From Psammoneis japonica (taxonomy: Eukaryota), in NCBI GenBank assembly GCA_008632985.1, contig QPGO01000098.1, positions 124,001 through 188,000 of the forward strand: DNA of 64,000 nucleotides, read 5' to 3'. Numbering within the stretch: position 1 is the stretch's first letter; each line of letters starts with the position of its first letter. Positions 1 to 29,666 of this stretch are shown piece after piece. Under the pieces are notes generated by a model, which did no database searches, was not told where the DNA came from, and worked only from the letters and a program-made list of their open reading frames with translations. A program made the translations under genes and the position numbers.

Positions 1-25
1 GAATGTATTCAGAGGGTCCAAAGAT

Positions 26-236
26 GGGGGAAGTCTCCAGCCAGCGCTGCTGGCTGAAAAAAGTCTGCTCGTCAGTGCGTTTGGGGGTTTTGCAAGTATG
101 ACAATTTTTACGTATGCAAAAGAAGACGAGTCTGTCCAGCGTTCACCAAAACCCCCTAACGCACAGATTGACAGACTCATTCAGTGCAATTTCTACACAA
201 AATTCTTCAGCCAGCAGCTGGCTGGAGACTTCCCCC
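26..236. mobile_element. MITE-like foldback element
   Basis: GGGGGAAGTCTCCAGCCAGC at 26-45 is the reverse complement of 217-236. A second, imperfect inner inverted pair lies at ~63-92 / ~147-176. No coding capacity and no clear TSD. Confidence 0.6.
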
Positions 237-898
237 AAAGAATCATCACAAGAATACAGTCCTGCACTTGCAGGCACCGGTGCGGGCCCTGGGAGCTGCT
301 GGAAAAAACGATTGTGCCACTGCCGGCACAAGCCTTGATGACGCAGCCATGCGGCCCTGCACGTTGGGCACAGACAGACGCCACCCGCAGCAGCACATGC
401 CATGCCATGCAATGCACTGCATTGCCACAGATGCCCAACACCAAAATCACAGTCTTGATGTGAAAAAAGCCTTCCATGACACCAGTGTTGTCTGACTTCA
501 TTTCTAAAAGCATTCGCTGGTCCACTCGCGCCAGCAAATTTCAAGATTCGCTCGCTCGCTCGCTCGAAGCAAGAGCCCAGTGACAGCCAAAAGCACAAAA
601 GCCCAAAACAATCAAGTCAGGTCCCACGGTCGGACACACCCAGCATGAGAAATCGCAGACAAGCCGGTGGTCAGGCAGATGATGATGCAGCCAGTGTGGT
701 GCTTGGGGCAACAAGCAGGCGCAACAATTGCGCCATCGGCGCACCCTCAAATTTCCCGCCATGTGGCACGCGACAGTCTCCAAGTCGGTTCTCGGTTCGC
801 TTTCCTCTGCTTGCTCGTGAGAGCATTGCAGTGACGATGAGATTGAGAAACATTCGTGGCAACAATGCTTCCACCAAAAAATGCTTTTTGCTGTTGTT

Positions 899-1871
899 TC
901 AACCATCAAAATGCTCGACATCAAATGGTGGGCAGCCCATCATGAGGGCCAACTGTGTGATGTTGGCCACGGCATGAAACACATGGCAATGTGTTTCCTT
1001 TGCATGGCATCATCTTTTCTGAAGCATTCCAAAGTGCTTGGGCCATCCATTGACAGCCTCATGCCTTGCCCTTGCTGTTGTTTTCATGGCCTCGTCTGCA
1101 TTTCTTGGGCCGGATGGTGTCAAGCTGCACTGGCAGCCGTCGCTGTGGCCACCGTTGGCCAGACACATCTTGCCATCTTCAAGCTCTTCAATGATCCATT
1201 TGCGAGCAATGCTCAGATCCAGCAACCCAGCTGGGTGTGGTCCATTGACCCAAACAATCCACCCTGTTTGAGTGCATGCTCCAATTTCACACCGCAGCCC
1301 AGCACTGTGGAATTTGTGGGAGAACCCTGTTGGATCGAACGGCAATGGCTCACAGATTCTGAAATCAGCGCCATCGAGTGTCACCAAACAAGTGCTGCCG
1401 TTATCACCAATGAAGCGGTCTTCCCAGTGAATCTAAAAGAAGGTGTCAGCTCACTTGTTTCATGCACATGAGCTTGTCTGGAATGGCGCGCACCAAATCC
1501 AACTGTCCAACAAGTTGAATGCTGACCCAAACCCATTTTCTCAGCGTGTCTTCATGAATTTTGTTACAGATTCTGGCAACGACTGTCTCAGATTCATGCA
1601 ATTTGAGAAAGCAAAGGGTGCACAGCAGGTGAATGGGCAAAAATCCTGGTGGCATTTTTCCGTCGTCTTCCAGAAGCCCCCACAACTCAGATGCTGCTTC
1701 TTGTGGGGTGCAGAAGCATGATGTGAAGCGACAGTTCCACACTGCAGGTGAGCCTTTTTGCTTCTGAATGACAGTCTGTGCCAAGCACTCTGTGGCCTCT
1801 TTGGGTGGATGCATGATTGGTGGTTGCTGGTGCACACAGCCAATCAAGCACTGTTTTAGACTTTTTTCCAT
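899..1871 (-). pseudogene. DDE_Tnp_4 (PIF/Harbinger-type) transposase relic
   Basis: Motifs HLLCTLCFLKLHESE..TLRKWVW, VTLDGADFRICEP..FSHKF..GLRCEIG..GWIVWVNGP, ANGGH (DxGY-like) and RARHEAVNG. Positions expected to be Tyr read Cys or His. Probable intron near 1450. Ends approximate. Confidence 0.75.
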
Positions 1872-2715
1872 TGGACCGTGTGTGCCACCTGCTGTTCCAG
1901 TTGTTTGTTGAGAGTTGTGCTTGTCATCTTGGGCGCAGTTTGGGTTCTCATTTGGAGAGGCCTTTCGTGAGATTCCGTCGTGTGTGACGAAAACACGAAA
2001 AAAATGCGATTCGGGTGCGGTTTCGGAATGGCGACTTCGAAACGAACGCCAAAGGCAAGTTTGGGTGTCCTCATCTCAACCGGAACCGGTGCACTGACGG
2101 CTCCAAGGCATGCTCTTGGCTCAACTAACACAGCAGCAGAGTTGCAACATGTGACACAGCATTTTAATCCCATGATCCATTGATGGCGGGGCTTCAAAGA
2201 AACGCATTTTTCTGCAAATCGAAATGAAAACGCCTTTTCATGGATGAAGAGCACACGTAAATGTGCCACTGAAAAGATGGAATGAACTTGCACACCAAAG
2301 TTCACTGTCAGTGCAATTGTTTTATCACAAGCTACAGCCATGTTTGAGCCAATCATTCCCATGTTGAGACGGCCCAAAGTCATCGTTCTGGAGCCGGAAA
2401 TCGTTTTGTGTGTGATTTGCGAACGATTTTAGTGCGGTCTCGGAACGTTTTTCGGGTGGACTTGAGGGAATCTAGGGCCCCCCACAATGTCAAGAGGCCC
2501 TTTCTCACTTTTGGCGGTTGGGATTAATTTTGGCGGTTGGGGTTTTTCAGATTTGAAAAGAGCAGCATCCCGCAAGAAGCAGTGAGGTGGGTTGGTCGTG
2601 ACCCATTCAAAAATGGGGTTCTCATTGCTGCCCGTCAATGCGAACGCGGATCTTGACGCCTCTCGACTTTGCACCATCCATCCTGTCATAAAAAAGAGAA
2701 AACAAAAGAAACAAC

Positions 2716-3891
2716 ATGCCCAAACTCAATCAACGAACCAAATCGGTTCTTGACACAGAGGCCGCCAGTCCCCTTGTTCGTCCACAGTGGTGCAAGGGAT
2801 CCGCCGCCTGCAAAGTCCTGAAGGAGATGTTGATGGAGGGCAAGATGATCCCTGGCGCGATGCCAAAAGAGATCCAGCAGATGCGCGCAGAGTTCATGCA
2901 CTGTCCACTGGACAGATTCCGCACTGGCTTGTGCAGGCTCAAAGACGAAACCGGGTTCAATCTTCGTCGTGTGATGAATGCCAGCAATGAGAACCCTGAC
3001 GGTGAGTGTTGATTGTTGATTGTGTTCCTGCATGAATGTGTGACAATTGGAAGTGACGTCACATCATTGCTGATGCTTGCATTTTCATTTTGACCGCGCG
3101 CTGCATGCACTGTTGTTGTTCTCGTCGTGCATTCACCAGACACCGATGATTCCGATGACAAGCAGCTGTTCTCCGGCGGCCCAGACAGCACTCGTCAGAC
3201 GAATGCATCGGCTCCAACTCCCACCAACAACAATGATGCCGCTGGCATCATGAATGGAGCTGGTGTTGCTCTTGTGGTGGAGGGACGTGGTGGTGGGCAA
3301 GGAGGAGGTTGGAAGAGCTTCAAGCCCATGGTCTTGCAAGCCACTCACAAGGACTCTGTCACCAAGACCAATCACATCGTGTTGCTTGTTGTGGCTCCAT
3401 CTGGTGTTTGCACCACGGACCTTTCTGGCATTCAGCTGTCTGTTGTGGGCAATGGAATGATGCTCAGTTGCCTCTCCCAATGGCCTCAGCACTCCATGGA
3501 CATGGATGCTCTCCACACAGTTCTCCTTTCTGAAGTTTCTGCTGAAGGGGGCGGCCACGGTGGCAATGATGAACTGCATGATGTGCACAAGTGCTTTGAA
3601 GCTCTTTCGGATGAGCTGGCTTCAATGAGGCAGTCTGACTCTGAGGTCCTGTCTTCCACGGCCATCACTCCCTTGCCAATCCAGGTCTCTAGGAAAATCA
3701 ACAAGGTCCATTTGTTGGATGGGCGTGGTGGGTCCAGGATCATTCATGTGGACCTCAAGTCAGAAGATTCAACATGCTGTGCCATGGAGAATCCAAAAGT
3801 CAAGTTGATTGATGCTGCAGGCGGCGGTCTTGGACTCATTGGTGACAATCAGGAGCCTTCATGTTGGCGGATGGGATGCACATGCATTTGA
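2716..3891 (+). pseudogene. Accessory (second) ORF of the Harbinger-like element, two exons
   Basis: ORFs 2716-3012 and 3127-3891 lie inside the TIRs, divergent from the transposase. GTGAGT donor at 3002 and candidate acceptor near 3139. No Tyr in either translation. Confidence 0.5.
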
Positions 3892-4140
3892 CTCAACACA
3901 CAGATTGGGACCCAGGATTGTTGGCAACTGACTGGCATGAGAAAATGCTGCTTTAGACAACAGTCTTAGTGCAACTAGTTGTTTGTGTGAAACACACAAC
4001 TCAGCTCAATCTTTGGCTTGTGCTTCGTCGGCATGTGGTGCCGGCACGGCAACATGCAGTCGTCGTCTGCTCATGTTTTTCATCGAAAAAACGCGCAAAA
4101 CGATGCAAGACGTTTTTTCCAGCAGCTCCCTGTGCACTTG

Positions 4141-4458
4141 CTAAGAATTGCTGAACAATTGCGCGATTCACGTGCCCGAAGGTCGAACATCGTTGCCCGA
4201 AGCAACATTCTACCTTCGCGCAGATGTCCACCCTGCATGGCACATGGTGTTGAAATTCTCATTGCAGTCGCATGAGTCATCGCGGGAATTTCATCAAATG
4301 ACCTCGTGGTGCTGTGATGCGCGATCTACACAAATCGGACATTCTCGAATGCTGGCGCATTTTCTATGGTCTCTACGTGCGTGAAGCTTGAATTTTGTGC
4401 CCGAAGCAACAATCGTCGTTCGGGCACATGAGCCGCGCAATTGTTCAGCGATTCGCAG
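4141..4458. mobile_element. Tc1/mariner-type MITE, TpA-mutated copy
   Basis: Imperfect ~40-bp TIRs (..GCTGAACAATTGCGCG..CGCGCAATTGTTCAGC..). Colinear with 29349-29666. Flanked by TG...TG where the other copy has TA...TA. Confidence 0.85.
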
Positions 4459-6512
4459 TGTGGAGCCCGATGAGGAGGGTTCGGCCCCGCCGAACCCAAT
4501 GAGAAGGGTCCAAGCAACAAGGTGGATGAGACCAACAAGGTGGTTTGCACAGTGGCAAGAACAACCCCAGCGAGGAGGGTGGATGACGAGGAGGGCTTTA
4601 GCCCGACAAGAAGGCCACACGACAAGCTGTGGGTCGTTCTCGCCATTGTGCAACCCAACGAGAAGGTCGAACCGAGGCGCGTTGAGTGCACACGGGAGTG
4701 CACACAGGGTCCCCTGCTGCAAGGATTTCACACATGTGATTTGACCGTTGCTGCAACCACTTGGGGAGCACTTTCATGTGCAAGACTGAAGCACCAAAGC
4801 ACCACAAAAGAGAACTTTTGCGCTGCAGGTTTGCTTGTTGGCAACGGTTTTTGGCGCCGACTGGCAGTCGCGAAATCATTCAAAATTGTCAACATTGCAC
4901 ACAATGTCACAATGAATTAAAAGTCATGCACACATTGATCTCGGCTTCTAAAACCATTGGCATGATCAACATTTAAAAACATTGGCGGGGTTGATTCAAA
5001 CAGACCACGCAGAATTGCACATGCTGGTGCAGTTTAACGGCAGAATCCTTGCAGTCTGCAGAGAGACAGCAAGGTTCTGCTTGCAACCCTTCTACACGAT
5101 TTTATGCTGAGGCACACTTGTGCACGTGCACTTTGCACCGAGAAATTTTGTGTGACTCTGAACGGTGTGTGGTCGAGTTGATGGCTGACAATTTTTCCAA
5201 GCGGCCGATCGACAACCACCACTCCCTCTGACAATGGCACTTTTGGCTGATTTGACCGGTGCGACACCACCTCCTGACCCCCCCTCCTTGCTTGCTGGTG
5301 TTGTGCTCCATTGGATCGTGCCATGTGAGCAAGCCCTGGCTGTAGAATGGGTCAGAATGACTCAAAATGTGGTGAGCTCTGATTCTCGTGGAATCGCATG
5401 CCTTTTTCCCCGTTCTCGTTCACAATGGCGCTCACCTTGAGCTTCCTTGCCCCACATCTTGATGTGCAGGACTCAAAGATTGGGGCATCTGGGTCCGTGG
5501 GTCAACACCGTCACTGTCACCATTTTTTGCTCCGTCCCCATTCTTCCGTGCCGCTCCACCACGGCACTTCTTCTCTCCCCGGTCCATGCCATCCCACCAT
5601 GCACTGCCTCCATTCTCCAAGCTGCTGCGGCAATCCCAAGCACCGACTTTCTGCCATTGCTCATGCCGATTTGCCACCTGCTTTTGTCGTCCTGCTCCGT
5701 GGAACCACCAGACTGCCTCTCTTCCATCTGTCCTTCCTGGCCACCGCTGACGATCCAGGCACCCCAAGTTTTGATCCCAATGGTGAGTTTTCATCAGTCG
5801 TTTGCCTGTTGTTGCATTGCATTTGCAGAAAAGTGTGTTCTCACCTCCTTGTGTTGTTCCATGTCACCGCAGATGTGGTCATTTTTCAGGCGCTGGTGCC
5901 ATGCTTCTCTGTGCAAGTTTTTGTGCATGCCAATGTTGTCTTGCTTTGTTCTTTTCATTGAAGACATGGTGCTGGCTCAAACAGATCCATTCTCTCTTTT
6001 GCGCCCTCTTGCAACATTGTTGGATTGCTGTGCTTGCATCTCTCTCCGGCACTTGCATCACCATCAGTCTCTTTGCTTGCATCATCTCTTCTCCACACTC
6101 ATTTCCCCTGTCAATTGCACGTGCATAATTTCTGCATAAATGGCTCGCACACAGAGTGACAAAACACCACCAAATTGCACAGTGACGGCTGTCAATGGTT
6201 TTTAGAATTGCTTGAGCTCACCCACACTCGAGCAGTGGGGGAGTCCTGCCACGCCGGCATGGATGCGGTGACAGAGTGAAATGACACATTGTCCTTGGGC
6301 ATCATCTCCCACCGGTGCAAACTCCGTGAACAACACATCATTGGAATCCTCATGACATGAGGTTTCCCAATCAATGGCCTCAACTCTTCAACCACTCACT
6401 TGAGGATTTGTGACGTGTCATGCACTTTTACAATGACACAATGCACACGGCACACAAAAATGTCATGTGGTGCAGAATCTGCGCAAAGTGTGCCATGTGG
6501 ATTTACTTGTTG

Positions 6513-6834
6513 GGAGCAAATCTCCACCGGCGGAGATTTGCTCCAAGGGTGTGGCATTGTTGCTCTGTTTGTGACAGCAACTCATGATGACCTGCATTGT
6601 CAAAGGTTGAGATTTGGCTCCTCTCTGTCCACAGATGCAGCTTGCAAAAAAAAACCAGTGTCAAAAGTCAATGTTGAACTTTCAAAATTACAAAAAGGGT
6701 TCCCCCAGATTTTTGGCAAATGTGTGGTCCAAAACAAAAATCGCGTGAACAAAATGTCACACATGTGTCTGAAAATTCTTCGTGTGCTGTGTTTGTGATG
6801 CAAGCAAGCAAATCTCCACCTGCGGAGATTTGCT
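6513..6834. repeat. Pair of near-identical hairpins
   Basis: GGAGCAAATCTCC-accggc-GGAGATTTGCTCC (6513-6544) and AGCAAATCTCC-acctgc-GGAGATTTGCT (6807-6834). Confidence 0.7.
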
Positions 6835-7713
6835 CAAGTCCGGTGGTTGAAGGGTCAAGCAGTTGGAACGGAATTTGCGATGGACCATTTTGTGTGGAAG
6901 ATGACAGACAAAAAATGTGAGAATTGGGGTGCACGGAAGATTTCCACCATGCTTCTCCCACACCAATTTAACACTTAACGCCAATTGGAAACAAGCACCA
7001 CATCATGTGGTGTTTCAAAAAATTTGAACACCACATGTGGTGTTTCGATTTTTTGTTTGGCAATCATGTCCAATTGAATCAGGTTTGAGACCCAAATGAC
7101 TGCATGAACAAATTCTCTGCACTCGAAAACATGCACTTCCACTCTTCAATCATCTCCATGTGACCTTTGGTTGTTGAGTTTCCGGCAAAACTGCTTCCAC
7201 CATGACGGTCCCAACTGCATCACCCGATGAGGTGGAATGTTCCCTCCCACGACCTCCCTCTCCTGCCGGGATGAACAGACAACAGACAAACATTGCTGAC
7301 ATGTTGACAGGCAGCATTGATGTTCCCGATTCACCCTGTGCTTTTGAGGAACAATTCAACAAATTTCAGCAAATTTGAGCAATGTTGACCCCAAAGCAGT
7401 TGTGCGCCCGCTGCCAGCCAAGAAGTCCAGGAATTGATTTTCTCACACCAAGAAGAAGCCAACTGGAAATGCTGAGTCATTTGCAAAGCCTGAGCACCAA
7501 GAGTCATGCTCCACCAAGTGCTTTGATGCAGTGCAGATTGAGGGTTCCATGCGCCCGAGTCACGGTGCCAGAATTTGACGTTCCAAAACACTCCAGTCAG
7601 TCTGTGGTGAGCAGTGGTCATTGGTTCATCTTCTTGGGGATGCTTGATGATTCGACATTTTTATTTGAAATGCTGAATTGGCACACTGGCTCTTCTCTGC
7701 AGGTTTCCATCAT

Positions 7714-8114
7714 GTGTGGGCATGCAGCAGTTTATGCCGCAGAGACAGAAACAGCAAAACAGACAACTTGGGAGGTGCGAGTTGACCAGTCACTAAATTG
7801 TGAGAACAAAAACTGCTCTGCTCGACAACCAACAAGAATTTGCAGGAAACAAGAAGTGACCCGTGTTTGCACTGAACTCAACACAGATGCACATGTTGCA
7901 AAGACTTGTCAAGAACAAGAAGTTCTTGATTGCATGAAGAAGAACAGAAGTGAGGCTCAACTCTTGACTTGAATCCCAGACCTCTGATCTCATTCATTTC
8001 TCAATCTGTGATTGGGTGAGTCGTTGATGGTGGTTGATGGCTGTTTCTGAGTGGTCATTGTCGCACGCAGGACTTGATGGCATGATGACACATGAACATG
8101 TGTGTGTTCCCACA
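7714..8114 (-). repeat. 3' LTR of Copia copy 1 (low-coordinate end approximate, possibly truncated)
   Basis: Aligns by eye to 13792-14198 and begins TG on - right after the PPT. Confidence 0.8.
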
Positions 8115-8141
8115 CTCCCTCATGCCAAAATGTCTGAGTTG

Positions 8142-11100
8142 TTGCCAGCCCTGCACTGACAGGCGATGGCAGATGAACAACGCCAGGCCCGACATTTTCA
8201 TCAGGAAGTTGGCCTGTTGGAGTTTGGTGCCAACAGCCTCAATCAGGAGACATCCATTGGCCACTTCAGATTGGAAGTGATGGCAAATGTTGTTGACATG
8301 GTGCATGGCGCATTTGTGGACGCATCTTGGGCACCTTTGCGATTTCAAGTGTGGCCGAGTTGTCCTCGAACAGTTTGCAGCAAACGGTTGGTGTGGTTGC
8401 CACAGGGCAGAAGTTCTTGTTCACCTCCTCAAGGAGGTGTGTGGAAGCTTTGACATGCCTGGTGGCAGCCGACAGGGCCAAGTGTTCACTCTCACTGCTG
8501 CTGAGAGCAAACTGCTGAGTCTGCAACTTGGATGACCAGCAGAGAGGAGCCCCTCCATGCTTGACAACACAGCCACTGCGAGACTTTGCCGTGTTGGGGT
8601 CCTCCGCCGCGATCGTTTTGTCCCAGTTGCCACAGAAGTCGGCGTCCACGTAGCACTCAAAGCTCTTGGTGCCATCTGGAGGGACCTGAATGTGGTGACC
8701 CTTGTCACGAGTCAGCAACAGGTGCCGACCGAGGTGCTTGAGGGCTGCGCCATGAGACTTCTTTGGATTGGCGGTGAAGCGAGCCAGTTGGTGAGTCGTG
8801 TGCGCGACATCCGGGTGAGTGGACTTCTCAAGGAAGTTGACTTTGCCCACAACCGATCGGCAGTCGAAATCACAGTCAAAAGGTTTGCCGTCAAAGTCAG
8901 GCCCAATGAGCCTGGCAGAGAGGGCTGGAAGCTCCCTGGTGGTCACCACTTTCTTTGGTGTTCCATCCTCATTGACAAGTCCGAGATCAACAAGGATGCT
9001 GTTGATCAGGTGAGGCTGGGCCAAGTGATGTCGATCCTTCTCCCTCTGAATCTTGACTCCAAGGCATTCGTCAATGGTTCCTTCGTCCTCCACATCGAAC
9101 ATGGTTTGCATCAACTTGACAACCTTGTCAATGTTTGCAGCAGACTCTTTGTCAAAGACAAGACAATCATCTGTGTAGACTAGCAGGACTGTGGTTCCTC
9201 CATGGAAGACGCATTCATCGAACTCCGATGGAACAAAACCGAGTTGCAACAAACTGGCGCGGAGATGTTTGCACCAGGTTCGTCCACTGTCATGTCCGCC
9301 GTGTGTGTTCTTCTCAATGCGGAGACAGAATTTGTTGTGATCAATGCCAGGAAATGTCACTCCCTCAGGTGGCTCCATGAAGGTCGGTCGTGGAATGTCC
9401 GCTTGTGGATGCGCAAGGACGAAATCAACTTGTCTTGAATGCCATCCATGCACAACACACAGATGCAGAAACAGATGGATCATTGTCCAGGACAAAGCTG
9501 GTGCGTGAGTCTGGTCACAGTGCTTTCCGGGAATCTGCTTGTGCCCTCCAAGATTAAGTCGACTCTTCCACTTGTAGACTTCTCGTGTGTGAATTCGGCA
9601 CTTGCGCTTCATTGACCACACTGCTGGCAGGATCGTCTCATTGTCGGGTGCATCGGATTTCTCGCATGGTTCCCAGTGATCACGAGCAGCATGGTCTTGA
9701 ATTTCCTTCACCATGGCCTCCTTGAACTGCTCTGCATCTGGCTGCTTCATGGCTTTGTGCGTGCACATGGTGTCAGGATCAGCAGAGGCCTTCAAGAAGC
9801 AAACGATGGGATCATCAAGATCTGCCTGAAAATCTTGTTCTGAGTGCATGTCTTGGTCCAGCACCTCGAAGTCGGCTCTGCATGAGACAATGTTGGCCTG
9901 CTGTTGCAGTTCCGACTCGATCATGCGCTGTGTTGGCTGAACAGTGTGTCCAGACCGCATCGTTTGCACTGCTGGTGGAGGCTCCGGTTCGGGCACTTCG
10001 GACTCTGGCAGTGATTCTGGGGTCTCAGAGGCTCCCTCATTTGTTGCATTTGGCGTGTCTTCTTCGCCTTCCACCAATTCATCCGGTGCGGTCGCCTCCA
10101 CAGGCATTTCGGTGGGTTCGGCACCATGGTGTGCATTTGACGTGGTTCGCGTGGTCTTGATGCGTGCCGCCATTCCGGTCTTCTTGGTGATTCGTGGTTG
10201 AAGTTTTGAGTCTTGGAGAAAGTGGCAGATCTGCTGCCAGCGGGACTCAGTCGCGCGTTGGGATTTGAGCGTTTCGAACAAATTGTCAAACCTCATGTGA
10301 CATTGTGGTGAGACCATCCCTGTGGCGAGATTTGGAACCAGAGCAACTGAACGAGAGTGTCTTGGCAATGGTCCAAGGCACAGACCGACTCGAGAGCGAG
10401 GGTCCCACTTGGGTGCAGTGTTGTTGGCTTGCAATTTGCTGTTTAAAACGTAGACTGGTGCAGGCGAATGGATGAAAGTGCCAAATTTTGGGTTTCACTG
10501 GCACTTTTGAGAAAAGTTCGATCGGCGACACTTGCTGACCAGTTCTTGGCACACAGTCACGCACAGCATTTGCGCATCGAATGGTGCAGGGCCACAGAGC
10601 CACCTCCACTGCTGCTGGCCATCGATGCTCAGCACATGTGAGTTGTGTGCGAGCTGAATCTTGAAGGTCACGGATTCTTTTCTCGCAGGTGCCATTTTGA
10701 AAGTGTGCATTGACTCCACAAAAGGACATCATTTGGTTTGCATCCTTCACTGCCTTGAGGTGTGCATTGTCTGCGAAACGGCCATTGTTGGCATGGCAGT
10801 GAAGAATGTGAACTCCGAGTGATCGGGAGTGTGCTTCAAACGCGTGCTTCGCTGCTGCCATCTCAGCTCCAGTCAATGTTGTTTGCAAATGGACAAAAGA
10901 GAAGTCACTGTGGTGGTCAACGAATGCAGCAGCGCATCTGTGGCGTTTTGTTGTTGCCCAGCCTTTCAATTGGCCCATCAGACCTGGTGTTGTCGCATCG
11001 AGTTGGTCCACCGACACGCGCTGACCGGGCTCAGCAGCTTTGAACATTTTGTTTTGTTTGTTGTCCCCTTTGACTTTCCAAGGTGCTTTTGTCGCTTTTC

Positions 11101-12505
11101 CGAATCGACAGGCAGCACATTGAGGGACGTGGCACGTTGACAGACGACGAGGCAGGTCTCCATTGCGAGCCATGGCTTGCATGCGCGAAAAAGGGAGATG
11201 ACCGAGTCGACAGTGCCAAAGCAGCAATTCGTGGGATGGATTCGTAGGCGTGATGATCTCTTCATTTTTGATGAATTGTTCACCCTCTGAACCGTCCTCT
11301 GACAGGTTGAATTCGACTGCATTAGGGTTGGACGGAGGTGTTGATTGATCCGCATGGACAGCTCCCTTGTTCGGGCTAGTTGTGTCGTCGGGCACTTCGT
11401 CAACTGGAACATGAGTCGGAACAGCAGGTTGCTTGGCATGATCCGAGACCCCGTCGGGCAGAGGAGCATGATTGTGAGCAACAGCAGCGTTGGGTGTGTC
11501 GTCGTCGGGCGGAACAAGGTGTGCTCGGAATGCACAAAAATTTTCGTCACGACGATGGTCGTGTGTTTCGCACAACTCCTGAAGGGACGTAAAAGAAGGG
11601 GCAGAGCGAAAGACACCAACATTGCTTGTGTTGAGGGGGACCGACCGCGTGCATTTTTGGTCCATCCACTCTAAAATGATGCGGTTGCTCGTGGTTGTAG
11701 CATGAGTCCCTTCTTGGGTGCGCTCTTGTGGCTTGAGAGCTTGAGCCAGGTGTTGCGGAGACAGGAGCCGAATCGGGAGGTCGGGCACACAGCAGACGCC
11801 GGGTGTGTTCAAGTCATGTGTTCGGCTGAGGTCATCTTGGATGGGCCAACACACAGTGCCTTTGTGTGAGGCCGATGCATTGCTGGACATGCCCTTGACG
11901 TTGACATTGACCTTTGTTGGTGTCCGGATGAAGTCTGACATTGAGTTGGTCAGACAGCAGGAGGCGTGGTCATCGACACCAATGAGGAATGAGTTGGTGT
12001 CGCAGCTGTGGTCGTTGCAGGTTGAGCACCGTTCCGCATCGGTGGTGGAGGAGCATCCGACAACCGGTTCATGGGTCACGTGGACCTCAATGACCTTGTG
12101 CATGACACGTGTGCCACATTTGCGTCGGACATGTCGTTGGCGGCAAGCAGAGCCTCGCTTGCACCGACTCTGAGGTCTTTGGACTGTGGGCTTGGGATTT
12201 GGGTTGAAGTGGAAGGGCTTGGCTAAGTCAGACAAGGAGCACAATGGATCATGTGCACTGCCAATCACATTGGCTGCGACAGGAATTACTTTCATCAGAA
12301 TGGTGTCCACAGTTTCATCAGTGCAAGCCAAGATTGCAAACAGCACAACAAGCAGTGCAGCATGGATCATCTCCAAACCTGACCGCCACCTTCGTTCGCC
12401 TTGGGCCTGTCCAGTCATGTCATTGATGCCGGGAAGCGGTGAGAGCATCGGACGTCGGCTGGTTTGGATTGCCCCTGTTGCGGTTGTCCGCTTTCTGCTT
12501 GGCAC
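8142..12505 (-). pseudogene. Copia pol (integrase-RT-RNase H), frameshifted
   Basis: Integrase LWHCRLGH, VSVDQ, HANNGRF, HFQNG. RT AVWSMKRK, KWKSRLN.GGH, LLVYTDD. RNase H CYVDADFCG, ALSSSESE, FEDNS. Frameshifts near 10430 and 8300. Confidence 0.9.
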
Positions 12506-12633
12506 GACAGTCCTTGCTCAAGTGCTGTCCCCAGCACTTGTGGAAGTTGCAACACTTCCATTCTTCTCCCTCAAAGGTCTTCACTTTGGGTTCTCCGGGC
12601 TGAGGTTCGACGCCGTGCCAAGTCCATTTTCCT

Positions 12634-13706
12634 TCAAATTTCGGTTTTTTCACCTTTCTTGCGTTTGGCGGCGTTTGAGGACTTCTTGGCCTGGCCAGCG
12701 TTGGAAGGTTTCTGGTCCGATGACCGCTGGGGTGACCTGCGCAAGCGTTGGTTCCGGAGGTCGTTCACTTTGGCGCGAAGAGCAACAATTTGCGCTTGTT
12801 CCTCGGTTGGTTCGTTCCACTTTTCGTTGAGGACGAGGGCTTGACATTTCTTCTCAGCGCGAATCATGAGTTGCTCATGGGTGACATCGACTCCATCGTC
12901 ATGGTCCTCGTTGATTTTCTCCATGTGCTTTGTGAAGTTCTTGTCCGTGCATGCTGCATGTCCCTTGAATGGGTTCGTGATGAGATCGTTGGACGTTTCT
13001 CCTCGGCTTGACAGGGATTTGATCCGGTCCCTCACGTGCTTGTTGAATGCCTTGATGTCGTGGTTGGCTGTGTTGACCATGTGCTTGTCCAAGGATGCGA
13101 GCTCGGAGTGGATGTGGGAGGCTGCAGCGCGAGCATCAATCTCGGCCTTCGAGAGTAGAATTTTGAGGTGCAACACCCCGCAATCCGTGTCTCCGATGCG
13201 ACACTGCTCGGATTCGTTGGCCATGACTTGCTTGGCAGCTTCATCCACCGAGTTGTGAAGGCACAGGCACAGCTGATGGTCATTCTGGGTTTCGCGATTC
13301 TGCCCGTTTGTGCAGGTGGCGGACACCGTGCGGATCTGTTCCGGTGTGATGTTTCCGCACGATGTGAGCATGTTCTGGTTTTCAGCGGCGGCGCCAGCTG
13401 CTCCCTCATTGACGTTGATCATTGGGATGTCGTTCCAACCAAAAGCTCTGGACCTTGTGCAAAGTTCATCGAGCAATGCGCGGATGTTGGGCTTCTGGGT
13501 GTTGAACATGGTCGGTGGAGGTTCAGTGGATGTCTTGAACACGTCGGCATCGCCTCGGCGACTGCAGTCAAGTGGTGCATCACGGGCCAAGGCTGGTGAG
13601 CGAGCGAAGTTGCCAGCTGGAGGGTTGTTCTGGGCGTCAACAAGAGGTTGGATGGCGGCCGGAATGGCTGCAGCAATTGCGGCTGCGATCTGTTCGGCGT
13701 TCATGA
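12634..13706 (-). pseudogene. Copia gag
   Basis: ORF directly downstream of the 5' LTR. The C-terminal knuckle-like WKCCNFHKCWGQHLSKDC continues in the shifted frame 12420-12653. Confidence 0.75.
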
Positions 13707-13791
13707 TGTCGTCGTTTCGGCAACCACAACGTTGGGCTCTGGTTTCTGCAACAATTTTGAACTGAGTCAGGTCTCTGTAGCACAGAGGAAG

Positions 13792-14198
13792 CGTGTGGGC
13801 ACACGGCAGTTTACGCCGCAGAGATAGAAACAGCAACAGCAGACAACTCAGGAGGTGCGAATTGACCAGTTGCTAAATTGTGAGAACAAAAACTGCTCTG
13901 CTCGACAACCAACAAGAATTTGTAAAGAACGAGAAGTGACCCGCATTTGTGCCAAACTCAACATGGATGAACGCAGTGAAAAGACTTGGCAGGAACGAGA
14001 AGTTCTTGATTGCATAAAAGAAAAGAAGAAGTGAGGCTCAATTCTTGATTTGAACCCAAGACCTCCGATCTCATTCGTTTCTCGAGCTGTGATTGGGTGA
14101 GTCGTCGTTGATGGTGGTTGATGGCGGTTTCTGAGCGGTCATTGTCACACGCAGGACTTGATGGCACAATGACACATGAATGTGTGTACATTCTCACA
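13792..14198 (-). repeat. LTR shared by Copia copies 1 and 2
   Basis: Precedes gag of copy 1 and directly follows the RNase H end and PPT of copy 2. Confidence 0.8.
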
Positions 14199-17100
14199 CT
14201 CCCTCGTGCCGAAATGTCCGAGTTGTTGCCATCCCTGAACCGAGAGACGATGGCGAATGAACGTCGCCAGGTCCGGCATTTTCGTCAGGAAGTCAGCCTG
14301 TTGGAGTTTTGTTCCAACAGCTTCAATTGGGAGACGTCCGTTGGCGACTTCAGAGCGGAAGTGGTGATGGACATTGTTGATGTGACACATTCTTGGACGC
14401 ATCTTGGGCACCTTTGCAATCTCAAGTGCTGCCGAGTTGTCCTCAAACAATTTGCAGCAAACTGTTGGTGTGGTCGCCACAGGGCAGAACTTCTTGTTCA
14501 CCTCCTCAAGGAGATGCACAGATGCTTTTACATGCCTGGCAGCAGCCGACAAGGCCAAGCATTCACTCTCACTGCTGCTGAGAGCAAGCTGAGTCTGCAA
14601 CTTGGATGACCAGCAGAGAGGAGCCCCTCTGTGCTTGATGACACAGCAGCTGCGAGACTTTGCCATGTTGGGATCCTCTGCTGCGATCATCTTGTCCCAA
14701 TTGCCGCAAAAGTCAGTGTCCACACAGCATTCAAAGCTCTTGGTGCCATCTGGTGGGACATGGATGCAGCAGCCCTTGTCTTGAGTCAGCAAAAGGTGTC
14801 GTCCAAGGTGCTTGAGGGCCACACCATGGGATTTCTTTGGATTGGCAGTGAGCCGGGCCAGTTGATGAGTTGTGCATGTGACATCAGGGCGAGTGGACTT
14901 CTCCAGGAAGTTGACCTTGCCCATGACCGATCGGCAGTCAAAATCACAATCAAAAGGTTTGCCATCAAAGTCAGGCCCAATGAGCCTGGCAGAGAGAGCT
15001 GGGAGCTCCCTGGTGGTCACTGCCTTCTTTGGAGTGCCATCTTTGTTGATGAGTCTAAGATCAGTGAGGATGCTGTTGATGAGGTGAGGCTGAGCCAAGT
15101 GATGTTGGTCCTTCTCCTTCTGAATCTTGACTCCAAGGTGCTCATCAATGGTTCCTTCATCCTCTGCATCAAATGTGGTTTGCATCAACTTGACAACCTT
15201 GTCAACATTGGCTGCAGACTCTTTGTCAAAGACAAGGCAATCATCTGTGCAGACCAGCAGGACTGTTGTTCCTTCACAAAAGATGCATCCATCAAACTCC
15301 ATTGGAGCAAATCCAAGTTGCAACAACCCGGCTCGAAGGTGTTTGCACCAAGTTTGTCCACTGTCATGTTTGCCACAGATGTTCTTCTTAACGTGGAGAC
15401 AGCACTTGTTGCAATCAATGCTGAGAAATGTCACTCCCTCAGGTGGCTCCATGAAGGCAGGTCATGGAATGTCCACTTGTGGGCACGCAAGGACAAAATC
15501 AACCTGTCTCGAGTGCCATCCATGCACAACACACAGATGCAGAAACAGACGGATCATTGTCCACGACAAGGCAGGAGCACAAGTCTGGTCACAGTGCTTT
15601 CCAGGAATTTGTTTGTGCCTGCCAAGGTTGAGTCAACTGTTCCACTTGTAGACTTCGTGTGCGTGGATTCGGCACTTGCGCTTCATTGACCACACTGCTG
15701 GCAGGATGGTCTTGTCATCAGGCACATCGGTTTTCTTGCACAGCTCCTGATGATCACGAGTGGCATGGTCTTGCATTTCCTTGACCATGGCCTCCTTGAA
15801 CTGCTCTGCATCTGGCTGCTTCATGGCTTCATGCGTGCACATGGCATCGGGGTCAGCAGAGGCCTTCAAGGAGCAAGCAATGGGGTCATCAAGTTCTGCC
15901 TGAAAATCCTGTTCTGAGTGCATGTCTTGGTCCAGTGCTTCGAAGTTGGCTTGGCATGAGACAACATCAGCCTGCCATTGCAATTCTGACTCAATCATGT
16001 GCTGTGTTGGCTGAACAGTGCATCCAGACCATGTTGTCCATGCCACTGGTGGAGGCTCTGGCTCAGGAACTTCCAACTCTGGCAATGATTCTTGGGTCTC
16101 AGAGACTCCCTCATTCATTGCATTTGTCGTGTCTTCCTCGTCTTCCACCAGTTCTTCCGGCACAGTTGCTTCCAAAGGCATTTCAGCAGGTTCAGCACCA
16201 TGGTGGACGTTTGTTGTGGTTTGCATGGCCTTGACGCATGCCATTGTTTCTGTCTTCCCATTGAATTGTGGTTGAAGTTTTGAGTCTTGGATGAAGTGGC
16301 AGATCTGCTGCCAGTGGGACTCAGTCACGCATTGGGATTTGAGCATTTCGAACAAATTGTCAAATCTCACGTGACATTGTGGTGAGACCATCCCTGTGGC
16401 GAGGTTCAGAACCAAAGCAACTGAGCAAGAATGTCTTGGCAATGGTCCAAGACATGGACCAACTTGTGAGCGAGGGTCCCGCTTGGGGACAGTGCTGTTG
16501 GACTGCAATTTGTTGTTGAGAATGTAGACTGGGCAAGCGAACGGATGAAAATGTCAAATCTTGGGTTTTGCTGGTGCTTTTGAGAAAAGTTCGATTGGCA
16601 AGGCCTGTTGACCAGCTCTTGGTGCACAGTTGTGCACAGCGTGTCAAATGGTGCAAGGCCACAGAGTGACCTCTGCCACCATTGGCCATCGATGCTTGGT
16701 GTGAATGAGTTGTGTGCAAGCTGAGTCTTGGAGGTCTTGAGTTCTCTTCTTGCAAATGCCATTTTGAAAGTGAGCATTAACTCCACAGAAGGACATTGTT
16801 TGATTCACATCCTTTGCTGCCTTGAGGCATGCATCATCTGTGAAATGACCGTTGTCGGCATGACAGTGACGAGTGTGGTCTCTGAGTGAGCAAGAACATG
16901 CTTCAAACACACACGCTTGGCCGCAGCAGTCTCAACTCCAGTCAATGTTGTTTGCAGACAAACAAAAGACAGATCACTGCAGTGATCAACAAACAGGGCA
17001 GCGCATCTGCAGCGTTTTGTTGTTGCCCAACCTTTCAATTGACCAACTGGGCCTGGTGTTGTCACGTCAAGCTGATCTGCCAACACACACTGATTGGGCT

Positions 17101-18478
17101 CCACAGCTTTGAATGTTTTGTGATTGTTCAGTGTCCCCTTTGACTTTCCAAGGCACTTCAGTCGCTTTTCCGAATCGACAAGCAGCACATTGAGGGACAC
17201 GACACTTAGAAAGACAACAAGGCAAGTCTCCACTGTGAGCCACAGCTTGGATGTGCAAAAATGGGAGATGACCAAGCCGACAGTGCCAAAGTGACAATTC
17301 GTGGGACGGATTTGTCGGTGTGATGATTTCTTTGATCTCTCGATGAATGATTCTTGATCTGAATCGTCCTCTGACAGGTTAAATTTGACTGTGTTGGGGT
17401 TGGACAAAGGTGTTGATTGATCCGCAGGAGTGGCTTCCTTGCATGGGTTAGTTGTGTTGTTGGGTGCTTCATCAACAGGAATGACAGTCAGATTGGAGGG
17501 TTGCTTGACATGGTCCAAGACCCTGCCAGGTGGAGGATCATGGTTGCGAGCAACAGCAGCATCAGGAGTGTTGTCATTGGGTGCAACAAGGTGCACCCGG
17601 AATGCACAAAAATTTTCGTCACGACAACAGTCTCGCATGTTTTTCATGATGCCTGAAGGGACTTAGAAGACAGGGCGGAGCAAAAGACACCAACGTTGCT
17701 TTTGTTGAGGGGGACCGACCACGTGCATTTTTGATCCATCCACTCTGGTGTGATGCAGTTGTTCATGGTTGCAGCACAAGTCCCTTCTTTTTGGTGTGCG
17801 GAGACAAGAGCCAAACAGGCAGGTTGGGGACACAGCACACGCCGGGGACATGCATGGAATGGGTCTGTCTGAGGTCATCTTGGATGGGCCAACAGACAGC
17901 TCCCTTGCAAGAGGTGGGTGCATTGCCTGACTCACCTTTGACGCCAACGCTGACCTTCGTTGGCACCAGTGACATGAAGTCAGACATTGAGTTGGTCAGA
18001 CAATGCAAGGTGTGGGGTCATCAACGCCAATCAAAAATGAGTTGGTGTCACAGCTGTGGTCATTGCAGGCAGAGTGTTGTTCCATGTCGGTGGCAGAAGA
18101 GCATCCAATGATGGGCTCACAGGTGATGTGGACCTCAACGGCCTTGTGCATGACACATGCCCCACATTTGCAACAAATGCATTGATGGTGGCAAGTGGAG
18201 CCTTTCTTGCACCGTCTCTGAGACCTCTGGACTCAAGGCTTGGGGTTGAAGTTGAAGCAGAAGGGCTTGGCTAAGTCAGACAAAGAGCACAACAGATCAC
18301 ATGCACTGCCAATCACGTTGGCTGTGATGGGAACTACTTTCATCAAGAAAGTTTCCACAATCTCATCAGTGCAGGCCAAGATTGCAAACAGTGTGATGGG
18401 CAGTGTTGTGCAGATCGACTCCAAACCTGACCGCCACCTTCATTTGTCATGAGCTTCTTTGGTCACGTCGTTGATGCC
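14199..18478 (-). mobile_element. Ty1/Copia copy 2, same family, 5'-truncated (no gag), more decayed
   Basis: Colinear with 8115-12430 of copy 1. RT/RNase H in ORF 14145-15452. Homology stops at ~18478. Confidence 0.9.
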
Positions 18479-21400
18479 ATCTGTGTCATCCCCTGGATTG
18501 GGGCTCACATTTGTGTGTAAATGGTGGCAGCACTTAAGTCCATTTTGCTCTCATTCTGCCTTGATGGTGTCTGCCACTCCTGCAAACCAAACTTTCTTTT
18601 CTCTGTGTTTGCATGATTTGATGTTGAAAAGGATGTGCCAAATGTTCTGCCAGATGAGGCTCTTGCCTCTTCCTTCAGTCTTTCTCCTTCCCATCTCTTG
18701 TCTTGTTGGAAATCAGTGTCTTCAGTCACACCATCCTTTGTTGCCTTCTTTGAGCATTTCATCTTCTTCCTCATGCTGAAATTTGCAGTTTTTTTTTTTT
18801 TCCTCAATGTCTTGGCTCTCATGCTGGTGGTTGGAGCTGGGTCTTGCATTGACTGGGATCTTGCTTGCTTCTTCATGCAAATTGTCTCAGTCAGGTTCAT
18901 CCTCATGGCCATCATCTTCTGACTCAGTCATGTGTTTGTTTTCATCTTTGCTGTTGCTTTTGTCATTTTCCACTCCTGCAGTCCAATCAGTGCCACACTG
19001 GTTGTTGCCACAATTGCCCATAAATTTGAATTCTTTGATGCCTTGTGATGTGGTCATCTTCTCAACAGCTTGCATGTGCACATTGGTCAAGGGTGTGGCA
19101 GTGCATTTGAAGGGATTCAGAAGCTTGCCTGTGTGCAGGTTCACAGTGCTTTGTCCACCCTTGGGCAAATCAAATCATGGTTGCAGGCAGGTGCTGCCAA
19201 TGCTGGGCATGTCCATGGTGTTTGTTGGTTCATTCTCAACATGCAAAAGTGCAAATTCACCAAACATGAACTCAAAGTGTTCATCACAGTCAAGGTTCCT
19301 TTGTTGCACAATGGTGTGTGGACTGCAAGTGTTGGAACCTCCCCCTGTGCATGTTTGGCACAAGACAGTGTTCTTGATTGCAGCATGCTTGCAAATCAAC
19401 TTGGGCATTGTCTTGTGTGACAGGTGGCACACACAGTGGCTTGGGCTTGCTCCTTGATGGTCTGGTGGGTGCTTCACTCAACTTTGGGAATGTGGTCATT
19501 TTCGTTCTTCAGCCATGGACATCAGCTCCAGATTCATGCCATCCACAACTTCTGCTGGCATGGCCTTGAACTCAGGATTGCTCTCAATGAAATCAATCTT
19601 GAACAGAGCTGTTTTGCACTGTTGAAGAATCAAGTCTAGAACATCACAAACACTGCCATCATGCTTCTTGGAGTTCAGTCTCACACTTGATTCAGCACTT
19701 TGTCATCTTGTCTGTTGCATGCAGTGGCTTGGCACTGCACACTTCCATGGTGTCAATGCAGATGATTGTGCCTTCTCTCTGCTTCTTTGTGCATTTCAGG
19801 TGGAACAGCAACGGTGCAATTCCTCCAGTGGGAACAGCGCAAATGCTTGGTCTTGCCTTTTAGTGCATCTGTTGGCAGTCTCCAAACAACCACCATCCTG
19901 CCCACATCTTCAAGCATGATGAACAAGTTTTCACCAGATTTGAATGCAAAAACAGCTTGAAAGTTGAAAAGCCCTCACATTGGGTGTTCCAGCCTTGAAG
20001 CACAGTCTGAGAGCTTCTCAGTGCTTGTCATCTCCCCATTGGTGCAGCCTGTGGGATTCTGCTCCTCCATTGGAACCACAGTTCTGGATGCACTCCTGTG
20101 CTCCTTGATGTTCTTCTTCTTTTTTTGTCAGCATGCTCACATGCAACTGGCTTTCTTGGAGATCTTTTGCATGGTCAAAGAACTTCTGGCTTGGTGTGAA
20201 GGCACACAGTCCAACGTTGTTTTCTTTGAATGCAGCACAACTTGCTTGCAGTCTTCTTGTTGCAGGGCAGTCAGAACTCACCCGCCACTTGGTTGTCACA
20301 AGTTGCACAGCACTTGCTCATCACATTCTTTTAAATGAGGATGTTTGTGATCACATTCTGCAATCCAAGCTTTCATGTCCCCCCTTCCAGGATTGCAGCA
20401 CATTCTTCATCTAAAGAATCCACTCCTGCATTTGTGGACAGGTCTGTCTTGGTCTTTGTTGGTCACACATTGTTTGCTGGTCTCCAGCTTCCTGCCATGC
20501 TGAGGGCAGAGCCATTGTGTGGGATGATCTTGTCCACATCAACATTTTTGTTGGCTTGGTTCATGCTTGTCTCTGGTCTTTCATTTGTCAGCAGCAATCC
20601 ATGCCATGCAGTGCTCCTGCTTCTCAGCTAGAACAGGTTGATTGGTCAGATCTGGAGGTGCCAATGCTTTTGTCACCACAGTCCACTGATGAGTTGTGTC
20701 TTCATCTCTCATCTGTGCATGACTTTTGTCCCCTTTTGTCAGGTTTCTTTCTGGTGTTCCTGAGCCAATTGTCAAATGCAATCTCATCTTCATGTGCTTG
20801 CAATTTGGGGACTTGTGATTCAGCTCATTGCAGCACCATTGACACACTGTGGCACCACTCTGGGTGCCTTTCTGGGCATGGCTCTGGTCCTTCAGTCTGT
20901 CAGACTTGTCATTTGTGTGCATTCTTGCCATTGCTGTCCTTGTTGTTTGCATGCTCTTTGTCCCTTTTGTCATTCTGTTCATGAGGGTCATTGTCTTTCA
21001 GATGACTCAGTGGCACATCCACTGCCTTGTCCAGGGTCTTCAGGTGGGTGTCCTTGCCCAGGCTGCAGTCTCTCATGAAACTCTTTTTCAAACCCTTGTG
21101 GCACAGCAGTCATTGTTGCTGTTCTCCACAAACAGGAAAAATGAAGAATGTCATCCATTTCTCAAATGCTGTCTCTTGCAGCCTTTTCTTGACCATTGCA
21201 GTGCTGTCCTTGCACTAAATTTGCATTGGAGATGAATCCATCTGGCACTCTGTCTCCAAATCCTTTGCCAGTGGCATCTTGCACAGTTCTGCCATGTCAG
21301 GTGATGTGCACAAAATCATCTCAGACATGCCAACAAATGGTCAAGTTTGTGGGGCAACAGAGCCTCTCCACACTTGCAATTTTTGAAAGAATTTTTGCAC

Positions 21401-21480
21401 CACATGACTCTGCAGATGTTCAAAAAATTGTGTGGCTAAAAAGAAAAACACTGAAAGTTGTTGAACGGACCGCCCAATGA
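18479..21480 (-). mobile_element. Different Copia family, gag/integrase part only, heavily decayed
   Basis: Fragments such as SPHTIVQQRNLDCDEHFEFMFGEF..ENEPTNTM and GGQSTVNLHTGK..AVEKMTTSQGIKEFKF..DWTAGV resemble the post-integrase region of diatom Copia. No RT seen. Upper boundary approximate. Confidence 0.65.
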
Positions 21481-21959
21481 CTGGGCTGCAAAGTGGTGCA
21501 AAATGCCACCAAAGTCACAAGGAAATGTGTGTGAGTGACATGCAGCACAAACAAACCAAAAAATCATTGTCACAGTCCATCAGCTCAAAGTCCCAAATGG
21601 AGGACCCAATCATGAAGTGTGTCTCCATGTGTGTCCAAATGTGGGCACTGTTCTGGTCCACGTGCCACAGCATCCAGCACAAGCCCATGATGTGATGGTT
21701 GCAAGCAGGTCACACATTGCGGATGATGGGGTTGTCAGCAGTTTTGCAGCCCAGATGACATTGTGCACATTGCGCCGGTGAGCTTTGCTGTGCTGAGTGG
21801 AACACAGCAGAAAATGCAAGATGCATCATGTTCAAAGCAAAGGAAAACACTCAAGCTCAGTGGCCTGGTGGGCAGTGGGCAGCAAACACACCCAATGAGA
21901 CAGAAGTCTTGGGCTCAAATCCACAGAAGTGAGAATGAATCAGCCCCCCTTTTCACACA

Positions 21960-24900: not shown

Positions 24901-25054
24901 GTGGCTTGCACCACAATCAAACAGAGTGCTCAGTCAGGAGCATCAGCCACCAGAGGAGAGCAGAGTCAGAGAACAACAGGGGACGCAGGCGCGATCGGAT
25001 GGCGATTGATTTTGGGCGGATGGGCCGCTGTGCGCCTTCGCGCAAAGTAAGTAA
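21960..25054. other. Unclassified, heavily decayed repeat/pseudogene tract
   Basis: Very few TpA or CpG and no recognisable domain. Ends in a CpG-rich ~70 bp followed by AAGTAAGTAAGT. Confidence 0.3.
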
Positions 25055-25134
25055 GTGTTATTAGCTTCTAAGTAGCAACCTAAATTTTGAAATTCAAAAA
25101 GACTTTATTATCAACGATCATAAATCAAACCATC

Positions 25135-29131: not shown

Positions 29132-29348
29132 AGTCCTGCAACGCAGAAAGTTGAAAGTGTTGCTCTTCCGCCTTCGCATTCGCACATGTCTAGCTAGCAC
29201 CGGCATCTGCGACGAATCTTCACAATAAAAGGATTGATGATGTGAATCGATCATTGACCAAGCTACGGACAGATCCCGTGAAAACATACTGCAGTATTAA
29301 AGCTACAGATATTAATATCTTGTGTAGGACTCTCTATGAATCCTTCTA

Positions 29349-29666
29349 CTACAAATTGCAAAACAATTGCGCGATACACGTGCCCGAAGGTCGAATATCG
29401 TTGCCCGAAGCAACATTCTTCCTTCGCGCAGATGTCCATTCTACATAGTATATGGTATTGAAAATCTCATTGTAGTCGCATGAGTCGTTGCAGTAATTTC
29501 ATCAATGACCTCTGTGGTACTGTGCTACGTGATCTACACAAATCGGACATTCTCGAATGCTGGTATATTTTCTACGGACTCTACGTGCGCGAAGCTCGAA
29601 TTTCGTGCCCGAAGCAACAATCACCCTTCGGGCACGTGTATCGCGCAATTGTTCAGCATTTCGTAG
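29349..29666. mobile_element. Tc1/mariner-type MITE, TpA-intact copy
   Basis: TIRs CTAC..AACAATTGCGCGATACACGTGCCCGAAGG / CCTTCGGGCACGTGTATCGCGCAATTGTT..GTAG, with TA on both sides (29347-48, 29667-68). Confidence 0.88.

Follow-up and report, generated by a model that had tools for sequence, protein, structure and literature searches.

Within 64,000 nucleotides of Psammoneis japonica DNA (GenBank assembly GCA_008632985.1, contig QPGO01000098.1, positions 124,001 to 188,000 of the forward strand; this whole stretch is referred to as the window, and all positions are counted from its first letter) the same miniature inverted-repeat transposable element (MITE) is found twice, once with its TA dinucleotides intact (copy B) and once with most of them replaced by TG or CA (copy A). 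The locus raises the question in which direction this difference arose, how far it extends beyond the element and by which process it was brought about. The evidence presented below makes it highly probable that TpA was erased directionally from copy A, and that this happened in place. Across the entire window the observed/expected ratio (o/e) of TA is 0.16, with corresponding values of 1.61 for CA and 1.55 for TG.

A preceding sequence-only reading had placed one and the same MITE at 4141–4458 and 29349–29666. Both copies are indeed present there, with an element length of 318 nt and an identity of 86.7% across 315 nt (blastn), and a third copy was not detected in the window (blastn, word size 7). 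The terminal inverted repeats (TIRs) extend over 44 nt at 91% identity in B and over 42 nt at 86% in A, and an internal sub-repeat is present in both copies. Hereby, the TIR starts with CTAC; three of the four arms begin with CTA, the exception being the right arm of A, which begins with CTG. Neither copy contains an open reading frame (ORF) of at least 150 amino acids, and no related transposase was found in the window. Based on the TIRs and one clean TA duplication, membership of the element in the Tc1/mariner group appears plausible.

Base-by-base comparison of the two copies lists 44 substitutions, 32 of which are transitions; one of the 44 is spurious, produced by a gap that the global alignment placed at the right flank, and this flank was read directly from the sequence. 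The 21 TA of copy B (19 internal, two flanking) are represented in A by TG at seven sites (including both flanks), CA at six, CG at one, TA at four and other dinucleotides at three, and 14 of the 19 internal sites are not TA in A. Sites of the reverse kind, with TA in A and TG or CA in B, do not occur in this comparison. All 13 single-step differences between TA and TG/CA thus run in the same direction (two-sided sign test, P ~2e-4). The dinucleotide counts amount to 5 TA, 29 TG, 27 CA and 28 CG in copy A and to 19 TA, 22 TG, 24 CA and 26 CG in copy B. How specific the change is for TpA can be seen from the two 20-mers that the sequence-only reading had quoted, which proved to be exact: B reads ctacatagtatatggtattg at 29441–29460 and A reads ctgcatggcacatggtgttg at 4233–4252, so that five of five TA differ and all other bases are identical. 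Its statement that CpGs are retained in both copies likewise holds, with the counts of CG given above. Differences between CpG and TG/CA are bidirectional, with 5 to 6 per copy (six CpGs kept by B are lost in A), and represent ordinary CpG decay, a process apart from the erasure of TA. About 18 further differences between A and B are of neither the TA nor the CpG type.

The erasure includes the target-site duplication, which reads TA on both sides of B and TG on both sides of A. These TG flanks had been taken both to polarise the change and to date it to after the insertion. The contrast of TG/TG with TA/TA stands and, because the target-site duplication itself is erased, at least part of the change in A took place after insertion; the dating does not extend to all of it, as part of the internal erasure of A could predate the insertion.

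To read the ancestral state from the family instead of the pair, we used k-mer contigs from three sequencing runs of one sample. Contigs of X1, possibly the data source of the assembly itself, were placed on copy B at a likeness of at least 80%, resulting in 176 contigs; run X3 yielded no contigs matching copy B at this likeness. A family consensus of TG/CA, which would make B the derived copy, was not found among the X1 contigs: TA is the majority of contig depth at 18 of the 19 internal TA sites of B, which supports the proposed polarity. Minorities with C or G account for 5–26% of depth where listed, namely 6% at 29396 (T>C), 26% at 29397 (A>G), 12% at 29449, 11% at 29451, 8% at 29456, 10% at 29473, 14% at 29518, 12% at 29527 and 5–6% at 29564/5; at seven of the 19 sites they are below the listing threshold of 5%. 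The unique flanks of copy B are covered at a depth of 27–29 with 0 differences. The summed depth over the MITE is 1,488–16,479, i.e. 50–600 times that of the unique flanks, which is not a copy number and shows that the family is abundant. The TIR core and a conserved internal stretch, searched as exact patterns in metagenome contigs, gave 0 matches each.

The loss of TA is not confined to the element. TA-poor DNA makes up 51,559 nt (~80% of the window) at 3.96 TA/kb, with many 500-bp bins holding 0–2 TA and stretches of tens of kb at a TA o/e of 0.0–0.2, and is interrupted by two gene islands totalling 8,542 nt at 43.3 TA/kb. Island 1 contains 11–29 TA per 500 bp versus 0–1 outside. Its left edge is sharp to within 100 bp (0 TA at 24800–24999, 7 TA at 25000–25099), and its right edge fades within ~200 bp, starting just past the end of copy B. 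Copy B lies within this island, 61 bp upstream of the first ATG of an 817-amino-acid leucine-rich repeat (LRR) ORF, in surroundings of ordinary composition (TA o/e 0.5–0.8; (CA+TG)/(AC+GT) ~1.2), whereas the surroundings of copy A are abnormal (0.1–0.2 and 1.7–1.9, respectively). The islands with the LRR, ankyrin and WSD ORFs are unaffected by TA loss, including the non-coding DNA of island 1. Since this non-coding DNA retains its TA, selection on coding sequence is not the explanation of the islands. Terminal repeats, which would mark a recent insertion, were not found at the edges of island 1. As the non-coding island DNA that keeps TA includes copy B itself, we infer that the genes are spared through their chromatin or transcription state. 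The intact state of copy B may be due to youth, to its location on the margin of a gene island, or to the two combined.

Independent evidence for the direction is provided by two tandem Ty1/copia elements in the TA-poor DNA, which are 76% identical and whose nearest named relatives are found in Nitzschia inconspicua (51%), Epithemia and Attheya. Here, the reverse-transcriptase ORFs of both copies were aligned with 22 homologs, and alignment columns with a residue shared by at least 70% were evaluated. At 15 conserved Tyr columns copia copy 1 carries His at seven, Cys at five, Gln at one and Tyr at two, and at eight such columns copia copy 2 carries Cys at five, His at three and Tyr at none. 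Taken together, 20 of 23 conserved Tyr columns now hold His or Cys (10 each). Control residues are kept, with Phe at 13/13, Trp at 10/11 and Pro at 22/22 columns in copy 1 and Phe at 9/10, Trp at 4/5 and Pro at 10/11 columns in copy 2. At the codon level these replacements (TAY to CAY or TGY) correspond precisely to TA becoming CA or TG, so that the TA-poor state is the derived one.

The same process has acted on duplicated DNA independently in each copy after duplication, as is evident from sites at which one copy carries CA and the other TG. The copia pair contains 144 such discordances, and the next class of double differences contains 21. An inverted pair at 30.2 and 36.6 kb shows 20 against eight in the next class, and in a tandem pair at 34.2 kb (95% identical) they account for seven of eight double differences. 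In a 354-bp satellite, of which 14 monomers with a mean identity of 73% were aligned, 19 columns mix TG and CA, compared to 0–6 in other double-transition classes. In 13 of these 19 columns, 80% or more of the monomers carry a pyrimidine–purine dinucleotide; no or one CG occurs in six of these 13, and three of the six retain one TA monomer.

Beyond the MITE pair, too, TA erasure and CpG decay are decoupled. In the satellite and in copia copy 1, a CpG o/e of 0.6–1.0 goes together with a TA o/e of 0.0–0.15, and one-sided CpG losses number 169 in copia copy 2 versus 45 in copia copy 1, both copies being equally TA-poor. The split of outcomes in the MITE pair, TG at seven and CA at six sites, shows that both strands are hit, and the equal frequency of His and Cys (10/10) speaks for no coding-strand bias in copia.

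Local sequence context influences which TA survive. We expressed this as a context ratio, for which the proportion that a tetranucleotide makes up of the TA left in TA-poor DNA is divided by the proportion that it makes up of the TA in the islands. The ratio decreases from 3.5 for TTAA over 2.8 (CTAA/TTAG), 2.2 (CTAG), 1.5 (CTAC/GTAG) and 1.3 (GTAA/TTAC) to 0.47 (ATAA/TTAT), 0.32 (GTAC), 0.23 (ATAC/GTAT), 0.16 (ATAG/CTAT) and 0.08 for ATAT. At the position two bases 5' of the target A, the process accordingly favors A most and G next (ATA > GTA > CTA > TTA). This order can be accounted for by an additive model in which both strands contribute and the base at that position ranks A >> G > C > T. 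The MITE pair agrees with this model, because the TA common to A and B are all CTAC (4/4) and the 14 sites of B with ATA or GTA have all lost their TA in A (10 of the 14 being TG or CA).

The data thus demonstrate in which direction the change went, that it is specific for TpA and independent of CpG decay, that the compartments have sharp edges and that the base at position -2 matters. How might such a pattern have been produced? We propose a region-limited hypermutation of TpA to TpG or CpA, i.e. from A:T to G:C on either strand, which would have run near completion in repeat-rich non-genic DNA while sparing at least two gene islands. Copy A would have been mutated in place along with its TA target-site duplication and the surrounding DNA, and copy B, at the promoter-side edge of the LRR gene island, would represent the state before mutation. 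Chemically, adenine could be deaminated enzymatically in DNA, most likely, to hypoxanthine, which the following round of replication would read as G. The putative deaminase, recruited to silent chromatin or to repeats, may be ADAT2/TadA-like, as proposed for Bigelowiella natans. By our analysis, the odds that this chemistry and mode of recruitment are right stand about level with the odds that they are not.

Several observations weigh against parts of this account. At 29566 copy B has T, where 72% of family depth is C, so that for this one site the change probably occurred in B; B also deviates from the family majority at 29578 and 29491, which amounts to ~1% overall. Given this small distance and its place at the very edge of the island, youth alone could explain the intact TA of B, and the pair by itself is therefore no proof of protection by the gene neighbourhood. 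The family consensus was built on k-mer contigs from a single sample, possibly the one underlying the assembly itself, and the required likeness to B of at least 80% biases the contig set towards intact copies. One site of the MITE pair has TA facing CG, for which two hits are needed. In the copia pair, CpG decay alone predicts ~69 of the 144 CA/TG discordances; with about half of them expected in this way, we rejected the discordances as a clean polarity test and used the Tyr codons and the CG-free satellite columns. Finally, the strand outcomes in copia are weakly clustered (61 runs versus 72.7 ± 6.0 after shuffling, P ~0.03), which carries little mechanistic information.

Alternative explanations may concern the direction of the change or the place where it happened. 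If TG/CA were ancestral, B would have gained its TA by C-to-T change at CpA in the manner of repeat-induced point mutation (RIP), the products of which are of the same type as the transitions seen here, and the site at 29566 would fit. The TA majority at 18 of 19 internal sites, the ordinary dinucleotide composition around B as opposed to the abnormal one around A, the reversed RIP indices of the window and the turnover of copia Tyr codons to His and Cys all contradict this direction and render it exceedingly improbable. One could also imagine that A was TA-poor already when it inserted, being derived from an erased master, and that only its flanks changed in place. The 5–26% family minorities with C or G at TA sites of B make transposable erased copies conceivable, and the ~18 differences of neither TA nor CpG type would allow A to be a member of an older subfamily. 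Against this origin stands that both flanks and the adjoining non-MITE DNA are erased likewise and that every TA still present in A has the resistant CTA context, just as in the DNA around it; furthermore, the TIR arms of A differ at TA-derived positions (CTA versus CTG), which fits damage after insertion. We therefore consider this origin of A unlikely, and favor directional erasure in place.

Two further alternatives concern the nature of the signal itself. The TG and CA could be an artefact, either of a modified base in heterochromatic TA that was miscalled or of sequence polishing. For the runs no sequencing platform is recorded, X1 possibly supplied the data for the assembly, and the TA-to-CG site is an outcome that conflicting strand calls could give; such sites are, however, rare (one in the MITE pair, two in the copia pair). 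Moreover, k-mer contigs at 27–29x match the flanks of B exactly, which implies accurate reads, X1 holds 0.98 of the sampled 31-mers of 24000–31000, 31% of which is TA-poor, and ordinary substitutions as well as CpG decay have added further divergence to the erased copies. Considering also that Illumina data from B. natans revealed this signature among de novo mutations, a technical origin is very improbable. A different chemistry deserves more weight, though we still deem it rather unlikely: the thymine of TpA could be modified, e.g. to 5-hydroxymethyluracil by a TET/JBP-type enzyme, and mispair with G, leading to T-to-C changes. TET/JBP enzymes and TpA-biased 5-hydroxymethyluracil exist in some protists. 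In duplex sequence, T>C is indistinguishable from A>G on the other strand, and the strand-symmetric outcomes in the MITE pair (TG 7, CA 6) and in copia (His 10, Cys 10) would be expected from thymine modification as well. The preprint on B. natans favors adenine deamination, but does so by analogy only, via an ADAT2-like candidate. Enzymatic deamination of adenine hence remains our preferred chemistry.

The features of the window are compiled in the following table.

Features of the 64,000-nt window (positions counted from its first letter)
Feature	Positions	Strand	Remarks
TA-poor compartment, left	1..25047	.	Contains MITE copy A
MITE copy A, left flank	4139..4140		TG; equivalent in copy B is the TA target-site duplication
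MITE copy A	4141..4458	.	TA-erased; 5 TA remaining, every one in CTA context
MITE copy A, right flank	4459..4460		TG where copy B has TA; read directly from the sequence
Ty1/copia copy 1	8000..13900	-	In TA-poor DNA; RVT_2, gag_pre-integrs (Pfam)
Ty1/copia copy 2	14080..19980	-	In tandem with copy 1, spacing 6,074 nt
TA-normal island 1	25048..29874	-	LRR ORFs 25135-26676 and 26834-29287, MITE copy B
MITE copy B, left target-site duplication	29347..29348		TA; 3 X1 contigs end their match at 29347
MITE copy B	29349..29666	.	TA-intact, 19 TA; near family majority; right edge of island 1
MITE copy B, right target-site duplication	29667..29668		TA; read directly from the sequence
TA-poor compartment, right	29875..60300	.	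Weak partial islands at ~51.3-51.8 kb and 53.6-54.1 kb
354-bp satellite	54400..59500	.	Tandem; TA-poor, CpG-rich (o/e 0.8-1.0)
TA-normal island 2	60500..64000	.	Continues past window end
Ankyrin-repeat ORF	61192-62109	+	Pfam; island 2
WSD/DDT ORF	62476-63993	-	Pfam; island 2

Regarding the gene islands, Pfam marks their LRR, ankyrin-repeat and WSD/DDT ORFs as genes of host type. The nearest named relatives of the LRR protein occur in Ditylum (41%), Cylindrotheca and Stephanocyclus; like those of the copia elements they are diatoms, and a diatom origin of the DNA is therefore probable. The WSD ORF has a best database match of 50% identity, and a protein atlas search returned only generic WSD clusters with scores of up to 0.80. 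At the start of island 2, the stretch 60700–60900 has a GC fraction of 0.28 and 15–16 TA per 100 bp; located ~300–500 bp ahead of the ankyrin ORF, it is a possible promoter region. The partial islands at 51300–51800 and 53600–54100 show intermediate TA (fraction 0.1–0.47) and could be young insertions or small protected units; tRNA genes, a possible cause of such small islands, were not found in the window.

Within the TA-poor DNA, the segments 18500–25000 and 40000–48000 display a TA o/e of 0.0–0.12, a CpG o/e of 0.0–0.24 and a (CA+TG)/(AC+GT) ratio of ~2. They look like old repeat DNA in which CG and TA have both converged on TG/CA, and the ORFs tested there contain no Pfam families. A run of seven N at 41901–41907 marks an assembly gap or masking. 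The inverted pair mentioned above (30241–31190 and 36585–37529) consists of ~950 nt at 75% identity with ~5.4 kb between, all TA-poor, and may form the ends of a large element. A Pertussis_S1 Pfam match in the ORF at 12634–13836 (E 0.0067, 16.7 bits versus a cutoff of 21.3) was dismissed as noise in DNA of the copia gag region. The window as a whole holds 71 ORFs of at least 150 amino acids; the TA-poor DNA is rich in long ones, on both strands and with many overlapping. The satellite, too, carries long spurious ORFs on both strands, which result from erased TAA and TAG stops. As TA is part of two of the three stop codons, a gene cannot be deduced from the length of an ORF in this genome.

Hypermutation restricted to TpA was previously described in one 2026 preprint, for one chlorarachniophyte and mainly for two viral insertions. 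New in the present case are the lineage, probably that of a diatom, the near saturation over all kinds of repeats and the sharp stop at genes. Hereby, the MITE pair represents a compact natural experiment that polarises the change and places at least part of it after insertion, and the sharper motif (ATA > GTA > CTA > TTA) together with the decoupling from CpG narrows the search for an enzyme. If a DNA adenine deaminase is indeed responsible, it would add a new class to the genome defences of eukaryotes and would be a candidate for a naturally occurring adenine base editor. Somewhat short of an even chance, we would give credence to a still wider picture: a probable diatom genome with a RIP-like defence of opposite chemistry, in which an (A)TpA-specific DNA adenine deaminase is recruited to silent chromatin with ~100-bp edges at transcription units and removes almost all TA from transposons, satellites and further non-genic DNA. 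Taken with B. natans (Rhizaria), TpA erasure would then be a defence that is old or has arisen repeatedly within the SAR supergroup (stramenopiles, alveolates and Rhizaria), and a natural source of DNA adenine base editors. For practical purposes, the annotation of transposable elements, ORF calling and element ages based on divergence are misled in such genomes, where the disappearance of TAA and TAG stops gives rise to long spurious ORFs on either strand.

Compared with known systems, the locus resembles fungal RIP in that transitions hypermutate one specific dinucleotide, repeats are ruined in place together with their flanks, and genes are left alone. RIP, however, turns CpA into TpA and makes DNA AT-richer, whereas here TpA becomes TpG or CpA and DNA becomes GC-richer. 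Fungal RIP was thus rejected as the process, its signature being opposite in the repeat compartment, with TpA/ApT at 0.01–0.15 and (CA+TG)/(AC+GT) at 1.5–2.1. Clustered transitions of the deaminase type that are directed against selfish nucleic acids are likewise known from ADAR hyperediting and from APOBEC/AID. APOBEC and AID target C and not A, and the changes described here are fixed in DNA, on both strands. RNA editing of the ADAR type followed by reverse transcription is ruled out, as a DNA-transposon MITE, its flanks, the satellite and unannotated DNA are equally affected. The element itself shares with Tc1/mariner-derived (Stowaway-like) MITEs its short length, the lack of a listed ORF, the TIRs, the TA flanks of the intact copy and the many copies; the TA duplication characteristic of that group is clean in copy B only, while the TG/TG of A fits an erased TA, two full copies with flanks being compared.

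The closest counterpart is found in B. natans. In mutation-accumulation lines of this organism, 231 of 302 nuclear point mutations fell into an integrated nucleocytoplasmic large DNA virus (NCLDV) and a virophage; all but one of the 231 were A>G or T>C, all of these occurred at TpA, and the rate was ~6e-7 per site per generation (Mettrop et al., bioRxiv 10.64898/2026.01.13.699255). The same text describes 124 TpA-poor, CpA+TpG-rich clusters in the genome, with TpA-poor coding sequences enriched in reverse-transcriptase and DDE families, and proposes a putative ADAT2-like DNA deaminase as the cause; it further states that ADAR and tRNA adenosine deaminases favor U before the edited A (bioRxiv 10.64898/2026.01.13.699255). 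For diatoms and other stramenopiles, a full-text literature search gave no account of an erasure specific to TpA; the sole report it returned is this preprint, which makes no mention of diatoms. The two cases differ in several respects, and the window does not stem from the annotated B. natans strain. The NCLDV insert of B. natans has a TA o/e of 0.45, compared to ~0.05 over tens of kb here. In B. natans the targets are mainly viral inserts; here erasure extends to long terminal repeat elements, to a MITE together with its target-site duplication, to a satellite and to unannotated DNA. The present DNA displays a preference at position -2 (ATA), and the preprint on B. natans nowhere uses the word 'trinucleotide'. 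De novo events were measured in B. natans, standing sequence differences here. Common to both are A>G and T>C changes solely at TpA, a depletion of TpA coupled with clustered enrichment of CpA and TpG, and the hitting of foreign or repeat DNA (here copia, the satellite and MITE copy A) with ordinary genes spared. Thus, the process matches the B. natans hypermutation in every feature testable here.

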